Virus record (IMG/VR): IMGVR_UViG_3300005615_000002
Location: 4,159 to 68,158 of that record
Strand: one strand, 5' to 3'
Length of the DNA stretch: 64,000 bases
From: a virus
Lineage: Duplodnaviria > Caudoviricetes
Below the pieces are notes generated by a model that saw nothing but the letters and a program-made list of their open reading frames with translations, searched no databases and had not been told where the DNA came from. Position 1 is the first letter of the stretch, and the number at the start of each line of letters is the position of its first letter. Position numbers and translations under genes: made by a program. Positions 2,469 to 63,236 of the stretch are shown in pieces.

Positions 2469-5064
2469 GTTTGTTAGTGGTGAGGGTCCAGAAGATGCCT
2501 ATGTGATGCTTGTTGGTGAGGCTCCTGGGCGAATGGAAGCATCTATAGGACGCCCTTTTTGTGGTGTAAGTGGGCAGGAACTCAATAGATACCTTCTAAT
2601 GCAGGCTGGTATAAGACGGCAGGATTGTTACATCACAAACGTAGTCAAGTACCGCCCTGATGAGGAAAATTCTGACCCCACAATTGAAGATATAGCTCGT
2701 GACGAGCCATATTTATTGGCTGAAATAGATCAAGTAAAACCCAAGATAATAGTTCCCGTAGGCAGAATTGCGGCTCAATACTTTCTTGGCCCAATTGACA
2801 TGGAATTCGAATATGGACTACCTCATTGGTCTGATAAATTCGATTGTTACATATTTCCAGTGTATCATCCCGCAGCCGGATTACATCAGGCGGATAGATA
2901 CTCTAAACTTATCTACAATGGGTTCAGGCGGTTAGGACTATTTCTTAATGGCCAGCTAGATAGAACACAAGATATACCCGCTAACTATCATAATAGAACT
3001 AGTTTTATCTTAGCTATTGAAATGGCTATTGATACAGAAGGTTATCCAACCAACCCTTGGGGATTGTCATGGTCTACAAATCATGGTGAGGGGTTTGTAT
3101 TAACTCATAATAATTTTAATAAATGGCTTATACCTCCAGAAAAAATAATCTTCCATAATGCTCTTTGGGATCTAAAAGTCCTACGCGGCATGGGTATAGA
3201 AATACCCCATAACAAAATAGAAGACACAATGCTTATCTCCCATTTGCTATGTGTTGAGCCCAAGAAACTTAAAGCTCTTGCCTATCGTGAAGCTGGCATG
3301 GAGATGGAGGAATATAAAGAGGTAATTAAAGAGGCTGATGAAAGAGTATCCCGAAATTACCTGGAACGAGTTTATAGCTCCAGTCTGTGCTCTGAATGCG
3401 GAGGCCGTGGAGAGTCTACAAGACCATGGAAACGAAATCCAAACAAATTTACCAAAGAAAAATGCAAACGATGTGATGGAGATGGGACAACCCTCCCTAA
3501 ACCCGAGTCTCAACTCGTATTCAACTCGGATTTCACTGCCAAACTCTATACCCCTGAAAGTACTGGTAGAAGACTTAGAGCATTTCTATCGAGTAATAAT
3601 AACTATCGAGATAGATGGTACGGACTTTCTAGTAACATCAGGAGCAGTATCGAAGTCAGCTTTGGGCAATTCCCAGAAGTAAGTCTAGATGATGTCGAGC
3701 CTAAAGAAAGGGCCATTAACTACTCTGCACGTGACGCTGATGCTACACTAAGGGTATATCACAAACTACGGCCTAGAATAACAGAAATGGGTCTAGAAAA
3801 GGCATATGAGATAGACCTAGGCTGTATACCTATTATTGATCGTATGCATCAGAATGGCATTTTAATAGATAAGCAATACTTCCGAGATTTAGATGCCAAA
3901 TTTGAAAAAGAGCAGTATTTAGTTCTTCAAAAAATGTATGATGAGGTTGGAGTTTATTTCAGCCCTACCTCACCTCCACAGATGAAACGTGAATTAGCCA
4001 AATTAGGCATTAAAAACCTAGATTCTACAAACGAGCGTACATTACAACTACTGAAAATACAAACAGACAATCCAAAAGTCAAAAGTCTTATTGATCTCGG
4101 TTTGGAGTACAGAGAACTCAGTAAGATGCGGGGAACATACACATATAGGCTAATCAATGAAGCTGATGAAAATTCTAGAATTCACACTACGTTTATTTTG
4201 TCTGCTCAGGAGGGTGAAGATTCTGCTGAGGCGCCATCTACGGGACGTCTCTCTTCCAGGAATCCTAATCTACAAAATATTCCGGTAGGACAAGGCCGTG
4301 GTGAGATGATCCGGGCTGGCTTCATTGCTAAGCTTGGATGCAGTCTATTATCTGTGGACCTTTCCCAGATTGAGCTTAGGGTAGGTGCCCACCTAGCTCA
4401 TGAAAGAAACATGATAGAAGCATTTAAGAGTGGTAAAGACTTGCATACCTTTACTGCTTCTAAAATGTTTAATGTGCCTTACGATCAGGTAGACAAAAAA
4501 AAGCACCGTTACCCAGCCAAATCTATTAATTTTGGTATTTTCTATGGAATGTCTGAATATAGATTACAGTCAGAACTAGCTGTTGAAGGTATCATAATTA
4601 GTTTAGAAGAAGCTAGAGAATTTATAAAAGCATGGTTCTCTATTTATCCTGGAATAAATGAATACATGCATAATGTTCAAGCAGAAGCCCGTCAGAATTA
4701 CTTTGTACGGACTATGTTTGGGCGTATTAGATATTTACCTAATGTACATTCTAAAGATCCCAGAGCACGTGAAGAGGCTTTAAGACAGGCGGGAAATCAC
4801 CCCGTTCAAGGCAGTAGTGGGGATATTCTAAAAATTGCTATGGCAAATATTCATAAAAAAGTCTATCCCGAGTTTAAGGCTATGAATAAATGTTTTGAAC
4901 CACTATTGTCAATTCATGATGAAATTATATTTGAAGTTGATGATGAAATAGCGGAATTAGCCTCTGCAATGGTTGCATATGAGATGGAACATGCTGTAGA
5001 ATTAGATGTACCACTACTCTCCTCTCATGTTATTGCAAAGGATTGGAGTAAATTAAAGGATTAA
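2458..5064 (+). CDS. polA: Family A DNA polymerase with N-terminal family-4-like uracil-DNA glycosylase domain and 3'-5' exonuclease
   Basis: UDG motifs GEAPG..E...G.PF.G.SG, ITNVVKYRP, YHPAA. Exo motifs IDTEG, FHNALWD, YSARDAD. Pol motifs TGRLSSRNPNLQNIP, DLSQIELR, AKSINFGIFYG, VQGS, IHDEI. ATG 2458 preferred over TTG 2443. Confidence 0.93.
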   Translation: MIGKFVSGEGPEDAYVMLVGEAPGRMEASIGRPFCGVSGQELNRYLLMQAGIRRQDCYITNVVKYRPDEENSDPTIEDIARDEPYLLAEIDQVKPKIIVPVGRIAAQYFLGPIDMEFEYGLPHWSDKFDCYIFPVYHPAAGLHQADRYSKLIYNGFRRLGLFLNGQLDRTQDIPANYHNRTSFILAIEMAIDTEGYPTNPWGLSWSTNHGEGFVLTHNNFNKWLIPPEKIIFHNALWDLKVLRGMGIEIPHNKIEDTMLISHLLCVEPKKLKALAYREAGMEMEEYKEVIKEADERVSRNYLERVYSSSLCSECGGRGESTRPWKRNPNKFTKEKCKRCDGDGTTLPKPESQLVFNSDFTAKLYTPESTGRRLRAFLSSNNNYRDRWYGLSSNIRSSIEVSFGQFPEVSLDDVEPKERAINYSARDADATLRVYHKLRPRITEMGLEKAYEIDLGCIPIIDRMHQNGILIDKQYFRDLDAKFEKEQYLVLQKMYDEVGVYFSPTSPPQMKRELAKLGIKNLDSTNERTLQLLKIQTDNPKVKSLIDLGLEYRELSKMRGTYTYRLINEADENSRIHTTFILSAQEGEDSAEAPSTGRLSSRNPNLQNIPVGQGRGEMIRAGFIAKLGCSLLSVDLSQIELRVGAHLAHERNMIEAFKSGKDLHTFTASKMFNVPYDQVDKKKHRYPAKSINFGIFYGMSEYRLQSELAVEGIIISLEEAREFIKAWFSIYPGINEYMHNVQAEARQNYFVRTMFGRIRYLPNVHSKDPRAREEALRQAGNHPVQGSSGDILKIAMANIHKKVYPEFKAMNKCFEPLLSIHDEIIFEVDDEIAELASAMVAYEMEHAVELDVPLLSSHVIAKDWSKLKD

Positions 5065-5065
5065 T

Positions 5066-5476
5066 ATGACTCAACCTACAATGAATGTACCAGTACCCGA
5101 TGTAGACGAATTGGAATTAGACAAATATACAGCATCAGGCCGTACAGCTAAAGAACTAGTTGACAGGCGGCAGTCTCTAAAAGATGAAATTGCTTTATGT
5201 GAACAAGAGATTAAAGATTTAGATACAGAACTTGGTTTAGCGTGTGACATGCGCAACGTTAAAAATGCAGTTTGTGGAAATTGGCTTATTATTAGACGTC
5301 AGGGTTCCAAGCCGCGCGCCACTTTAGATAGAGTACTACTTCTAGAGGCTGGAGTTACTCCACAACAGTTGGAAATGGGTACTAAACTCTCTGAACAAGG
5401 AAAGCCTGGAATTACTATACAGGACCTTTCTAAAACGACAACCAATAGATTTAATCATAATATAGAAGAATCATAA
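5066..5476 (+). CDS. Hypothetical protein with coiled-coil N-terminal half
   Basis: 136 aa ORF tightly spaced after polA. Confidence 0.75.
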   Translation: MTQPTMNVPVPDVDELELDKYTASGRTAKELVDRRQSLKDEIALCEQEIKDLDTELGLACDMRNVKNAVCGNWLIIRRQGSKPRATLDRVLLLEAGVTPQQLEMGTKLSEQGKPGITIQDLSKTTTNRFNHNIEES

Positions 5477-46865: not shown

Positions 46866-47078
46866 ATGAGACAAACATTCTGGTTCGATGTTTTTGAAAA
46901 TTTCGTTGTATTCATATTAGCAATGTTGGGTGGGTGGATAGGTGTTCTGACATTGGTAATAATTTTAACTGTTGATGTGTTTCTATATGTCAAGGTAGTT
47001 TTTATTAGGGATACTGACCTACCTAAATACATTGGAAGCGGAATCGTGGCCTACCTGGAAGAACTTATTTATGGCTAG
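46866..47078 (+). CDS. Small membrane protein
   Basis: Long hydrophobic stretch; ATG 46866. Confidence 0.6.
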   Translation: MRQTFWFDVFENFVVFILAMLGGWIGVLTLVIILTVDVFLYVKVVFIRDTDLPKYIGSGIVAYLEELIYG

Positions 47079-47301
47079 ATGCATTGCTTGCTTTATACAC
47101 CAAAATAGAAATGGCCCTGTGTGTGAAATCCATCCAGAAACAGCTAGTATACAAGAGGACATAAATCTCATCGAAGAATTACATAAAGAGTTGCTCGCTA
47201 TGCAAGAAATATTAAGCAAATGTACTAATATTTGTGGCATGTTAGCAACTTTAACTGAAAGTATAATGGATGGAGATGTAGATGGAGGCACAGCATGCTA
47301 A
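47071..47301 (+). CDS. Hypothetical Cys-containing protein
   Basis: ATG 47071 overlapping the previous stop. Confidence 0.55.
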   Translation: MARCIACFIHQNRNGPVCEIHPETASIQEDINLIEELHKELLAMQEILSKCTNICGMLATLTESIMDGDVDGGTAC

Positions 47302-47528
47302 TTACTATATGCTTGAACTATAAACATCTATATATTGTTTTATTGCCACTATGTATAGCATTTATAGTTTCTTCGGTTGTGTGTTCGGCCATATTTTGGG
47401 TTTGGGTTGGTTTTCTTAACAATGATTGGGATATTCCACCCAAAATTATCCTAATTTTTGGATGGCAACTGCCGCTAGTATGTATATTTGGTCTAATTAA
47501 ATTAATATTATACATATTTACTTGTTGA
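47295..47528 (+). CDS. Small membrane protein (2 TM)
   Basis: GGAGG RBS; two hydrophobic segments. Confidence 0.6.
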   Translation: MLITICLNYKHLYIVLLPLCIAFIVSSVVCSAIFWVWVGFLNNDWDIPPKIILIFGWQLPLVCIFGLIKLILYIFTC

Positions 47529-47534
47529 TATTAT

Positions 47535-47564
47535 TGTCCGTTAGCTCAGTTGGTTAGAGCAGAC
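47535..47564 (+). pseudogene. 5' half of a disrupted tRNA-Ile(GAU)
   Basis: tgtccgt-ta-gctc agttggtta gagc-a-gac: acceptor 5' strand, complete D arm and start of anticodon stem; pairs with 48027-48069. Confidence 0.8.
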
Positions 47565-47588
47565 GTTAGAGTATGATATACTCTAACA
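47565..47588 (+). promoter_or_regulatory. Perfect 10-bp hairpin containing an extended -10 (TGaTATACT) 6 nt before the HNH ATG
   Basis: gttagagtat-gat-atactctaac; no SD before ATG 47589. Confidence 0.55.
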
Positions 47589-47963
47589 ATGACAACTTGC
47601 AGTATATGTAGACGGATATATAGGTATAATAGATTTAAAGGTCATACTAAAACTAAGTGCAATTCGTGCATGGTTAATATTAGACGTTTTAAACTGAAAA
47701 ATACATGTGTACAACTATTAGGTGGAAAATGTTACGAATGCGGTTATACAGAGTGCATAAATGCTTTGGAATTTCATCACATAAACCCAACGACCAAATG
47801 TTTTGAAATAAGTGGTTCACATGCGCGTTCTTGGAATATGATAGAGACAGAATTAAAGAAATGTAAATTACTATGTGCTAACTGTCACAGAAAAGAACGT
47901 TGCAGCAGTAATTATAACTGTAAACATGCACCCGTGGTGTACGGAGCACGGAAAGTCTTATAA
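47589..47963 (+). CDS. HNH (homing) endonuclease
   Basis: CYECG..LEFHHINP..KCKLLCANCHR; N-terminal CxxC motifs. Confidence 0.85.
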   Translation: MTTCSICRRIYRYNRFKGHTKTKCNSCMVNIRRFKLKNTCVQLLGGKCYECGYTECINALEFHHINPTTKCFEISGSHARSWNMIETELKKCKLLCANCHRKERCSSNYNCKHAPVVYGARKVL

Positions 47964-48020
47964 ACTTTATAAACGCCAGATTAGCGTACGGACTGAGTTC
48001 AACTCTCAGCGGGTGTACCA
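47928..48020 (+). tRNA. tRNA with UAU anticodon (nominal Ile) and long variable arm
   Basis: Acceptor gcacccg/cgggtgt, A73, encoded CCA; anticodon arm aaagt-ctTATaa-acttt; 24-nt variable region with acgc/gcgt stem; T arm ctgag-ttcaact-ctcag. Confidence 0.85.
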
Positions 48021-48026
48021 AGGACG

Positions 48027-48069
48027 GATAAGGGTCAGGTCACGGGTTCGAGTCCCGTACGGACTACCA
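48027..48069 (+). pseudogene. 3' half of a disrupted tRNA-Ile(GAU)
   Basis: GATaa-gggtc-aggtc-acggg ttcgagt cccgt-acggact-a-cca: anticodon, variable loop, T arm, acceptor 3' strand and CCA. Confidence 0.85.
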
Positions 48070-48137
48070 AACTTCAGAGGTTATATGAAAACTCTCTATA
48101 TTATGTTACTAATATTTTGTGTGCTCAAGGCCAACTA

Positions 48138-48515
48138 ATGGAAATATCTAACCGTGATATTGCATGGTATGAACTGGCTCTAAAAGTAGCTGCTGATAGT
48201 AATGCATATGATCGCCACGGATGCGTATTAGTGCGCAGTGGAACGGTTCTAGGGGTTGCTACTAATCGTCAAGGTATTAGCCATCCTGTTAGTCAATCTT
48301 TTAATAAAGGTGGAGTACATGCAGAACAACGGTTACTATCAAGAGTAAAAGATTGCACAGGGACTACGCTATACTCTGCCAGAGATCACGTATATAATCC
48401 GGTTAGTTTTCCATGTGTGATGTGTGTTCAACTGATTTGTGATGCTAAGGTCAAATGGGTTGTATACCATGATGGTTTCAAAATATGCAAGGCTAGAATA
48501 CAACGTTATACATAA
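48138..48515 (+). CDS. Zn-dependent cytidine/dCMP deaminase-family protein
   Basis: RHGCVLV, VHAE, PCVMC motifs. Confidence 0.85.
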   Translation: MEISNRDIAWYELALKVAADSNAYDRHGCVLVRSGTVLGVATNRQGISHPVSQSFNKGGVHAEQRLLSRVKDCTGTTLYSARDHVYNPVSFPCVMCVQLICDAKVKWVVYHDGFKICKARIQRYT

Positions 48516-48785
48516 GTGTATGGGAGGTCATTAATGGATACTACAACCATTGGCAGGATACATGAAGATTTAATAAGAAAACAAGGAACAGTTGAGCAGA
48601 CAACGAATTCAGTAATTGTTAGATGGCGTCACTATTCAGGAATATCTCCCCTAGTTGCTAAAACCTATACTCCTGAAACCCTGATACTAGCTATAGAAAC
48701 AGCAACTAAGAAATGCGCGGAACATGCCACCAGAGAGCTGCAAACATTATATGGTTATGTTGCTTTGTGGCAGAGTCTTACATAA
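48516..48785 (+). CDS. Hypothetical protein
   Basis: 89 aa ORF; alternative ATG 48534 after GGGAGG. Confidence 0.6.
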   Translation: MYGRSLMDTTTIGRIHEDLIRKQGTVEQTTNSVIVRWRHYSGISPLVAKTYTPETLILAIETATKKCAEHATRELQTLYGYVALWQSLT

Positions 48786-61533: not shown

Positions 61534-62136
61534 ATGCCAGAAATAATTGAAATTCCATTTGATTACTCTACGTTATCTCTTTCAGAAGAAGATGAATTCA
61601 GGACTCGTTCTCCGGGGTTACATTTAACTGACATTACTAAGTCTATGCTCATTGCAGCTAGATTAGCAAAATGGGCGAATGATAAAGATCCTGACCCTAT
61701 CAAGCGCAAGATGCAATTTGAAAAGGGATTTTTATGGGAGCGTATTATTCAGTTATGCCTTAAATCTCAGATGGAGCGAGATATTAAAGCTTCTGATGGA
61801 TTGTTATACCGACCTGGAGAATATACTTATAATGGTGTGATTTGTACACCAGATGCCATTAACGTAGTAGATCGCTGTTTAGAAGAGTGGAAAGCTACAG
61901 CAATCTCTCCCAAAAATTTAAACAAGGATACGTTGTTTTATGAGAAACCAGAGTGGAAATGGGCTGCAGCTTGGCATGTGGAATATTTTGGATTAGATTC
62001 TGTTGTATTCCGCATATGGCATCACAGAGATTTTGATCCAACCATTAAACAGTACAAAGCTACATTTACCCCGGCAGAATTACGAGATAATAAAGAAAAA
62101 TTAATTAACTATGCTAAGGCGACAAACATGCTATGA
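61534..62136 (+). CDS. PD-(D/E)xK exonuclease (Cas4/YqaJ-like)
   Basis: GLHLTDI, FEKGFLWE, CTPDA, EEWKAT. Confidence 0.75.
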   Translation: MPEIIEIPFDYSTLSLSEEDEFRTRSPGLHLTDITKSMLIAARLAKWANDKDPDPIKRKMQFEKGFLWERIIQLCLKSQMERDIKASDGLLYRPGEYTYNGVICTPDAINVVDRCLEEWKATAISPKNLNKDTLFYEKPEWKWAAAWHVEYFGLDSVVFRIWHHRDFDPTIKQYKATFTPAELRDNKEKLINYAKATNML

Positions 62137-63236
62137 GTAGTTTAAAGGTCGAAGTTGTCGAAATAGATAATATTGAAGACCATCCAAACGCGGATAGGTT
62201 GGAAATAGCCAAAATCGCAGGTTGGACATGTGTAGTACGAAAAGGAGAATTCAAAGCGGGGGATAAAGTAGTTTATATTCCTATTGATGCAATTCTTAGT
62301 CCAGATGTAGAAACTAAACTATTTCCTGCCGAGTCTAAAGTAAAACTGTCTAGATCACGGGTAAAGACTATTAAGCTACGTGGTGCAATATCACAAGGTG
62401 TTGTTGTATCTTTATCTGAACTAGATTTAGCAGAAACACTACCTGTTGGTACTGATGTTGCAGGGGTTTTAGGTATCACCAAGTATGAGCCTCTAGAAGC
62501 TTCGCAGCCTAATAATACCAAAGGTAATGTAATATCTCCAAAGAAGGGTAATCCAGCTTTTCATAAATACACCGATATAGAAAACTTCAAACATTACAAC
62601 CAGTTATTTGAGCCTGGAGAAATGGTCTATGTAACGGAAAAATTACATGGCACCTCGGCTAGGTATGGCTGGCTTCCTACAGTAGCTAATACTTGGTGGA
62701 AGAAGACTAAACGTTTTTTTGGACTTCTACCTAGGTATGAATTTTGTCTTGGTAGTCGTAATGTACAATTACAAGATAGAAAATATTCTGGGTTTTATCC
62801 AACTGATGTTTATTCCAAGATTGCTAAAGATTTAGATCTTAAATATAGATTGATATATGAAGGGCAAAATCTATCAATATATGGAGAAATTGTAGGCGGT
62901 GGGATTCAGAAAAATTATACATATGGACTTAGTCCAAGTGAGCATGAATTTTATGCTTATGACATTAGTATAAATGGTAAATATCTAGATCCAATTGCTT
63001 TTAGACAAATTTGTGGTTGTATAGGGGTAAAAACTGTTCCACTCCTATATATTGGTCCATATTCTCAAGAAAAAATGAAAGAATTATGTGCTGGAGATTC
63101 AGTTATAGGGGGCCAGAAAATCAGAGAGGGTATAGTAATTAAACCAATTAGAGAAACTACTTGTTATATAGGTCGTAAAGTTTTAAAATACCTTAATGAC
63201 CAGTACTTACTTTCAGATCCAACGGATTTCCACTAA
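62133..63236 (+). CDS. RNA ligase, DRB0094 (Rnl5) family, with N-terminal OB domain
   Basis: HPNADRLE OB domain; TEKLHGTS (KxxG), YGEIVG, FYAYDI, REGIVIK, LKYLN. Confidence 0.9.
   Translation: MSSLKVEVVEIDNIEDHPNADRLEIAKIAGWTCVVRKGEFKAGDKVVYIPIDAILSPDVETKLFPAESKVKLSRSRVKTIKLRGAISQGVVVSLSELDLAETLPVGTDVAGVLGITKYEPLEASQPNNTKGNVISPKKGNPAFHKYTDIENFKHYNQLFEPGEMVYVTEKLHGTSARYGWLPTVANTWWKKTKRFFGLLPRYEFCLGSRNVQLQDRKYSGFYPTDVYSKIAKDLDLKYRLIYEGQNLSIYGEIVGGGIQKNYTYGLSPSEHEFYAYDISINGKYLDPIAFRQICGCIGVKTVPLLYIGPYSQEKMKELCAGDSVIGGQKIREGIVIKPIRETTCYIGRKVLKYLNDQYLLSDPTDFH

Follow-up and report, generated by a model that had tools for sequence, protein, structure and literature searches.

A phage tRNA gene broken by an HNH endonuclease gene and a nested tRNA(UAU): evidence for a probable intron-less homing cassette

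How does a homing-endonuclease gene come to lie inside a tRNA gene with no intron around it, and what becomes of the tRNA? The question is raised by a locus of a tailed phage (Caudoviricetes) known from IMG/VR virus record IMGVR_UViG_3300005615_000002. The stretch of DNA that we analysed, here called the window, is 64 kb of this 68,158-bp record, which carries direct terminal repeats; Pfam and PHROG annotation shows that it encodes tail proteins, a DNA polymerase of family A and a ligase cluster like that of phiEco32. At 47535-48069 (plus strand, as are all features of the locus) the two parts of one tRNA gene, the outer tRNA, flank a 458-bp insert (47567-48024) holding an HNH homing-endonuclease gene and a complete second tRNA, the inner tRNA, with the anticodon UAU. 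We consider it probable that an intron-less homing-endonuclease cassette broke the resident tRNA gene and supplies a replacement, cleavage and homing being presumed steps. Directly observed are the anatomy of the locus, the absence of a ribozyme, a relative's allele that is free of the endonuclease gene, and the fact that both the insertion site and the nesting recur.

The outer tRNA was read letter by letter. Its 5' part (tRNA positions 1-31; 47535-47566, with an alternative end at 47564) consists of the acceptor strand TGTCCGT, U8 and A9, the D arm GCTC-AGTTGGTTA-GAGC, A26, and the anticodon-stem strand GACGT. Its 3' part (positions 32-76; 48025-48069) continues with the loop CGGATAA, GGGTC, a variable loop AGGTC, the T arm ACGGG-TTCGAGT-CCCGT, the acceptor strand ACGGACT, A73 and an encoded CCA. 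The acceptor strands pair at six of seven positions, U1.U72 being the unpaired one, and the D and T arms are canonical. A 10-mer, CGTACGGACT, is present twice at this locus, at 47985-47994 directly after the variable-arm hairpin of the inner tRNA and at 48056-48065, where it forms the end of the outer T stem and the 3' acceptor strand; because of this duplication the outer 5' acceptor strand could pair with either copy. We did not build on the repeat, as about 0.17 such repeats are estimated to occur by chance in 600 nt.

We searched both strands of the window with a split-tRNA detector. Besides a T arm and the 7-nt strand following it, the detector requires a complementary 7-mer upstream, no more than 1.8 kb away, together with U8 and a D arm of 4 bp that has A14 and GG. 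Exactly one pair was found, the two halves described above, while 40 dinucleotide shuffles gave 0.175 pairs per window. A preliminary description of the locus had recognised two mutually complementary halves of one tRNA, and the direct reading, the detector and the cloverleaf that forms on joining all bear it out. The outer halves are real, they belong together, and they are no artefact. ARAGORN did not report the split gene in its intron mode with introns of up to 600 nt allowed; it accepted nearly any join of the halves when many pairs of cuts were tried, and therefore cannot place the junction.

That the halves derive from two distinct tRNAs, match by chance or result from mis-assembly is next to impossible, since this explanation is already contradicted. 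It could draw on the generic nature of D-arm and T-arm words: in IMG/VR the 3' half finds its best match in a tRNA-Asp, and a tRNA-His(GTG) gene on a 387-nt contig of another organism from the same rhizosphere sample has a D arm (20 nt) matching window positions 47542-47561 and a T arm (21 nt, one difference) matching 48038-48058. However, the acceptor strands are complementary, the halves sum to exactly one tRNA length, and seven other lineages show the same arrangement, each with 7/7 acceptor pairing. The relative described below has a single intact tRNA at the site, which also disposes of the alternative, named in the preliminary description, of two tRNAs that decayed separately. An independent Logan assembly of the source run yielded one 68,138-nt contig that spans 47300-48300 with zero differences; the junctions are thus no assembly artefact, a further possibility that the preliminary description had allowed for. 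A search of sequencing runs listed the window DNA only in the DNA run of the rhizosphere sample from which it came, and in no RNA run, and the INPHARED phage collection held no relative of the window at the DNA level. The tRNA-His contig had itself been a candidate for an empty allele, as the joint 47561>48038 in the source run; it was rejected because it belongs to another organism and has a different acceptor stem. It illustrates how much short homology between unrelated tRNA genes is available for recombination.

What would removal of the insert restore? The sequence GACG occurs at both junctions (47562-65 and 48023-26), as had been noted before. Excising exactly the 458 bp from 47567 to 48024 leaves a 77-nt cloverleaf that ARAGORN calls tRNA-Ile(gat), and on this reading the insertion would separate tRNA positions 31 and 32 (31/32 below) with no letters lost. 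The loss of about 4 nt from the anticodon arm, which the preliminary description had assumed, is only one reading; "4 nt missing" and "three substitutions" are two descriptions of the same letters. In the rejoined anticodon arm, GACGT-CGGATAA-GGGTC, positions 30 and 40 form a G.G mismatch and position 33 is G. tRNAs nearly always carry U at position 33. The rejoined gene thus departs from a canonical tRNA, with U at 33 and a fully paired anticodon stem, by G33 and G30.G40, and also by U1.U72 in the acceptor stem, and under either reading plain excision does not yield a normal tRNA, in agreement with the earlier view. The identity of the outer tRNA is less certain. One change separates its loop, CGGATAA, from CTGATAA (GAU), and two changes separate it from CTTATAA (UAU); the anticodon is GAU by position only, and the original identity could have been either GAU or UAU. 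The GAU assignment stands as a matter of position, but as an identity it is doubtful because a relative carries UAU at the locus.

The insert is compact. The HNH reading frame and the inner tRNA occupy 47589-48020, and only 22 nt of insert lie 5' of the frame and 4 nt 3' of the inner tRNA. A repeat search revealed a perfect inverted repeat with arms of 10 bp, GTTAGAGTAT gat ATACTCTAAC, at 47565-47587 (arms 47565-74 and 47578-87); a single nucleotide separates it from the HNH start codon. The left arm duplicates the D-arm word GTTAGAG (47553-59); two other loci (L009 and L010) hold a homologous hairpin whose left arm is the D arm itself. A scan for the sigma-70 consensus gave no promoter-like match at the palindrome. 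Of the insert contents listed in the preliminary description, the HNH gene, the complete tRNA(UAU) and the palindrome are present; a promoter role of the palindrome finds no backing.

The HNH gene (47589-47963) encodes 124 aa and matches phrog_2255 (E 4.7e-22) and further PHROG HNH families (1e-18 to 6.4e-11); Pfam alone gives only a weak match. An alignment of the 20 nearest homologues shows the invariant residues C48, C51, H63, H64, C96, C99 and H100, so that the catalytic motif and the zinc-binding cysteines are both present. The frame has its own start and stop codons and lies outside any intron or intein; the gene is free-standing. Its last 12 codons are the first 36 nt of the inner tRNA, and its TAA stop codon (47961-47963) lies in the anticodon loop, CTTATAA. 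It follows from this overlap that 5' processing of the tRNA would cut the mRNA upstream of the stop codon, which would probably keep endonuclease levels low. The HNH frame ends at the TAA of a CTTATAA loop in three loci, the window, L005 (858-860) and L007 (447-449), the loop belonging to the inner tRNA in the window and to the outer 3' part in the other two; tRNA processing would in each case remove or truncate the mRNA end.

The inner tRNA (47928-48020) measures 93 nt; its CCA is encoded, and its variable arm is long, forming the hairpin ACGC-CAGATTA-GCGT at 47973-47987. It is the only tRNA that ARAGORN reports in the whole window, and it scores 40.4 bits against the Rfam tRNA model (threshold 29), with U33 and a purine at position 37.

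Could the insert be, or have been, an intron? We examined 47000-48600 with Rfam at E<=10, and the inner tRNA was the sole match; no intron and no self-cleaving ribozyme was found. The group I core (P3-P9, RF00028) is absent from the window, as are the U.G pair in P1 and the terminal G of group I introns: all pairs of the helix at 47565-87 are Watson-Crick, and the last letters of the insert are ...AAGGA. The idea of a P1-like helix was dropped, because a candidate U.G pair in L009 is U.U in L010. Nor, when the window and L005 were checked by eye for a bulge-helix-bulge, could the first 8 nt of the insert be paired with its last 9 nt over 4 bp.

The relatives of the HNH protein give this negative its meaning. 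The protein collection holds 83 homologues, and loci were gathered by exact-protein look-up, by an alignment scan of IMG/VR (80 loci) and by a scan of JGI metagenomes (80 loci); single-protein IMG/VR locus searches with the deaminase encoded downstream (see below) or the HNH gave nothing useful. Of the 80 IMG/VR loci, 65 have a tRNA gene no more than 400 nt away from the HNH gene. The loci fall into three arrangements. In the first, seen in 22 metagenome loci, the HNH gene lies within a group I intron of a tRNA gene (Rfam Intron_gpI, 60-102 bits); these introns are 550-650 nt long and the split-tRNA detector finds the flanking halves in 20 of the 22. Two of them, L107 and L122, were read base by base and are tRNA-Asn(GUU) genes with U1-A72 and G73, split between anticodon-loop positions 35 and 36. 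In the second arrangement the HNH gene lies inside a tRNA gene without a ribozyme (an Rfam scan with E up to 1 finds none): the window, L005, L008/L007 (the same phage from two samples), L011, L015, the second HNH of L070, L093/L094, L099, and L009/L010, of which only the 5' half is visible. In the third, the majority, it stands free between tRNA genes. Since the same Rfam model detects the group I introns that carry this HNH family, its failure to detect one in the window is meaningful.

The cassette might still be what is left of a group I intron, its ribozyme core having since disappeared or given way to the inner tRNA, a history made conceivable by the 22 introns that encode the same HNH family and by ORF-less, intron-like inserts in phage tRNAs near such an HNH gene. 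We regard it as unlikely. The intron-borne enzymes belong to other clades of a FastTree tree of 163 HNH sequences (low support, used for clustering only), in which the window falls in a 21-row clade holding 9/10 rows of the ribozyme-free arrangement, mixed with free-standing members adjoining tRNA-Ile, Lys or Asn; the introns sit at 35/36 in the anticodon loop and not at 31/32; no trace of a core was found at permissive thresholds in the window or in seven other ribozyme-free loci; and the base that would form the P1-like U.G pair is not conserved between L009 and L010.

Several features of the intron-bearing loci were seen alongside. The 22 are L106, L107 (1366-1986), L114, L115, L117, L125, L132, L135, L137, L138, L144, L146, L147, L149, L151, L152, L154, L156, L159, L167, L168 and L169, and ARAGORN misses their intron-split tRNA genes. 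In the literature searched we found no description of group I introns in tRNA-Asn genes of bacteria or phages. The ORF-less inserts mentioned above, about 190-235 nt long and resembling small group I introns, interrupt the anticodon loops of two tRNA genes (L030:2008-2272 and L030:720-1029) both in a phage tRNA cluster where an HNH gene of the window's family is found as well.

Was there an intact tRNA gene before the cassette? The outer tRNA lies between a 77-aa membrane-like reading frame (47295-47528), which ends 6 nt before it and marks the homologous position in the relative, and a dCMP/cytidine deaminase gene (48138-48515; Pfam PF00383, E 4.7e-10). A deaminase homologue, P0085, 71% identical, led to L170, a 35.8-kb contig that is syntenic by tblastx: window 47080-47531 corresponds to L170 614-1109, the deaminase gene to 1396-1785 and the ligase cluster to 2864-5308, with amino-acid identities of 40-76%. 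Between the homologous upstream frame and the deaminase gene, L170 has one intact 78-nt tRNA-Ile(UAU), beginning 5 nt past the upstream stop codon, and no HNH gene. The homologous locus is therefore polymorphic for the HNH gene, as seen in this one relative. The preliminary description had proposed looking for a relative with an intact tRNA-Ile(GAU) here; the intact, HNH-free tRNA exists, but its anticodon is UAU. More distant deaminase relatives (L171, L172 and L173) show little synteny and lack a tRNA at the site.

The insertion point itself recurs. Removing 522 bp at 31/32 from L005 leaves a flawless tRNA-Ile(UAU), removing 448 bp at the same point from L093(/94) leaves a flawless tRNA-Lys(UUU), and removing 461 bp from the merged L008 and L007 leaves a tRNA-Ile(UAU) with several G.U pairs; together with the window, the point is exact in four lineages. 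The same HNH subclade lies inside tRNA genes in eight lineages besides the window, four of which also hold a whole nested tRNA, so that tRNA halves, HNH gene and whole nested tRNA occur together in five lineages, those besides the window being uncultivated phages unrelated to it. The outer and inner tRNAs of these are Ile(GAU) by position and UAU (93 nt) in the window, UAU and UAU (91 nt) in L007/8, Lys(UUU) and Ile(GAU) (74 nt) in L093/94, and Asn(GUU) and a complete Asn(GUU) in L099; in L011 the inner tRNA is UAU (78 nt). The outer anticodon arm is partly gone in L011, L070 and L099, and in L015 the HNH frame extends across the T arm and the acceptor strand of the outer tRNA. Junctions vary in this way among loci as expected of DNA insertion and not of a splicing signal. 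The inserts have no non-coding sequence in common; what they share is limited to the HNH coding sequence (DNA identity 65-75%) and to D-arm words, 18-20 nt long, of a generic kind.

The exactness of the site could also be taken to mean that the split tRNAs contain a ribozyme-free intervening sequence at 31/32, with the outer tRNA made functional at the RNA level, either by host RNases that trim it and a phage RNA ligase that joins it, or as two pieces held by the acceptor stem. The outer halves of L005, L007/8, L011, L070, L093 and L099 have kept all seven acceptor pairs, both the D and the T arm intact, and the CCA, despite only about 65-75% DNA identity of their HNH genes, and the phage encodes a 367-aa RNA ligase at 62133-63236 (+) (PF09414, 78.5 bits, and PF21189) with an N-terminal PHA02142 OB-fold domain. 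Against this, the rejoined window tRNA would carry G33, a G.G in the anticodon stem and U1.U72; neither sequence nor pairing is conserved between loci at the insert ends; the by-eye check described above found no pairing for a bulge-helix-bulge at the two ends of the insert; the anticodon arm is partly absent in L011, L070 and L099; a break at 31/32 would open the anticodon arm; and no RtcB was found in the phage genome. We hold such restoration to be very unlikely; if true, a bacteriophage would have either a tRNA that functions in two pieces or tRNA splicing that depends on proteins.

Alternatively, the outer halves may be kept as a tRNA-like clamp, pairing of the acceptor and T arms providing sites for RNase P and 3'-end processing by which the HNH/tRNA transcript would be delimited and made more stable; the preliminary description had raised a similar scaffold role. 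In the window, L011, L070 and L099 the damage sits in the anticodon arm, with acceptor, D arm, T arm and encoded CCA kept, and processing-linked control has been proposed for endonucleases of tRNA clusters (PMC2330249). The same pattern is, however, expected soon after an insertion without any selection, and U1.U72 would weaken the clamp in the window. Such a role seems improbable to us, and it is compatible with our preferred explanation for the origin of the arrangement.

Our preferred explanation, the intron-less cassette, would run as follows. A resident tRNA gene between the small membrane-protein gene and the dCMP deaminase gene would have been broken at 31/32 by the 458-bp mobile cassette. 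The HNH enzyme would cut or nick endonuclease-free tRNA alleles near the boundary of the anticodon stem and loop, and repair off a cassette-bearing genome would copy the cassette into the break, with conserved D-arm and T-arm words perhaps acting as short homology. Insertion would destroy the target site and so shield the allele from being cut again. As there is no ribozyme, the outer tRNA could not be restored; it would now be a decaying relic, of which U1.U72, G30.G40 and G33 may be the signs, and the cassette's tRNA(UAU) would compensate for the loss by supplying AUA decoding. The core of the idea put forward in the preliminary description, a selfish HNH element in a disabled tRNA gene with a substitute, is supported by the absence of a ribozyme, the L170 allele and the recurrence; its further claim that the substitute has a different anticodon is doubtful.

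Several observations weigh against this explanation. The outer tRNA and the L170 tRNA have 53/77 letters in common, and unrelated phage tRNAs share a median of 47 and a maximum of 60; the homology of the two would accordingly be an argument from position only. An uninterrupted allele of the outer tRNA was found neither in IMG/VR, by exact-word search with the 5' half, nor in JGI metagenome contigs, by the combined outer-tRNA pattern, and the one exact-word IMG/VR match of the 3' half, to a tRNA-Asp of an unrelated phage, is no such allele. The HNH tree is poorly resolved. The outer halves of L005 and L093 are free of defects, which fits recent insertion and also retained function; a search for the empty site of the L093 tRNA-Lys gave no match. 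Finally, the explanation does not account for a free-standing endonuclease gene arriving at the same tRNA position in tRNAs of differing identity.

What would the phage gain from the inner tRNA? In 17 large reading frames of the phage, ATA makes up 41% of Ile codons, or 25.5 per 1000, and the inner tRNA(UAU), the sole intact tRNA in the window, would supply the AUA decoding that the phage appears to need. It belongs to a recurrent phage class: seven loci have a tRNA(UAU) of 88-95 nt with a conserved YAGATTA-like loop in the variable-arm hairpin. Pairs of the acceptor, T arm and variable arm covary across these loci, with compensatory changes in 3/4 pairs of the variable-arm stem. In L004 and L006 the long-variable-arm tRNA(UAU) adjoins the HNH gene directly, without a split gene, which fits a movement of HNH gene and tRNA as one unit. 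The outer, or target, tRNAs mostly keep a common D-arm word ending in AGAG(C), whereas the long-variable-arm cargo tRNAs have divergent D arms; this hints, as a lead only, that the HNH enzyme may recognise the D arm together with the loop.

Related tRNA genes of these phages have unusual features of their own. In L091, at 1191-1300 and on the minus strand relative to the HNH gene, lies a long-variable-arm tRNA-like gene with a CTTATAA loop, tail-to-tail with the HNH gene and missed by ARAGORN. Long variable arms and class-II-like D arms are frequent on tRNAs with class I anticodons in these phage clusters: among 514 distinct tRNAs they occur in 18/62 Asn(GUU), 13/45 Ile and 5/15 Cys, plus some Arg, Thr, His, Lys and Val (the loci include L027, L037, L054, L056, L065, L066, L069, L073, L087, L113 and L118). 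A tRNA with the amber-reading anticodon CUA lies directly upstream of the HNH gene in L006 (336-411), and the tRNA cluster of L070 has a tRNA-Sec-like match at 205-294 (RF01852, 54.2 bits). In L010 a 102-nt tRNA-like gene (1917-2018) has good acceptor, D and T arms and ACCA, and drew no ARAGORN call; its anticodon stem, CCCCC/GGGGG, encloses 37 nt and not a 7-nt loop.

How much of this was known? Homing endonucleases in phage tRNA clusters are already known, and we describe a variant that lies inside a tRNA gene and has a tRNA nested within it. The closest documented system appears to be SegB of T4, a GIY-YIG enzyme that recognises a conserved T-loop motif, cuts inside tRNA genes of endonuclease-free relatives and takes neighbouring tRNA genes along, and whose expression has been proposed to be limited by processing of the tRNA transcript; F-TflI, -II and -IV of T5 are HNH genes between the tRNA genes of a cluster (PMC2330249). 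These systems resemble ours in having an endonuclease gene among phage tRNA genes, SegB also in its tRNA cargo. SegB, however, is of another nuclease family, and all of them lie between tRNA genes, whereas the HNH gene and cargo of the window lie inside one, at 31/32, and leave it broken. Group I introns of bacterial tRNA genes (RF00028), which include the 22 counted above, place an HNH gene of the same family within a tRNA gene, between perfectly matching halves; in contrast to the window, which lacks both core and terminal G and is split at 31/32, they have a core of 60-102 bits, lie at 35/36 and can restore the tRNA. In the "fractured genes" found mainly in phages (Dassa et al. 2009, PMC2677866), a free-standing homing endonuclease, equipped as here with control elements of its own, lies between the halves of a split-intein gene. 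There, however, protein trans-splicing restores the product, whereas in the window an RNA gene is interrupted, no restoring device is present, and a second gene would compensate. Another likeness concerns integrase-borne elements, which insert into tRNA genes and rebuild their 3' end. These too are mobile elements that target a tRNA gene and leave the cell with a working tRNA; the window differs in having neither an integrase nor an att duplication of the tRNA 3' end, in the insert size of 458 bp, and in a tRNA that is replaced and not rebuilt. In the full-text literature searched, which leaves most subscription journals outside its coverage, we found no description of an intron-less homing endonuclease that splits a tRNA gene and brings a nested replacement.

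The finding has a practical side in that tRNA finders overlook both the broken genes and the 22 intron-split tRNA genes, and the exact 31/32 site may serve as a concrete prediction of where the HNH enzyme cuts. To our knowledge, homing endonuclease genes have been thought to persist inside genes only with an intron or intein to repair the damage, and otherwise to lie between genes. A subclade of HNH enzymes that is repeatedly found inside tRNA genes without a repair device, and that brings a whole tRNA along in five lineages, would represent a third way to pay the cost. The cassette may thus be a vehicle for swapping phage tRNA genes, which bears on how phages acquire and exchange tRNAs, including those that match codon usage or escape host anticodon nucleases.

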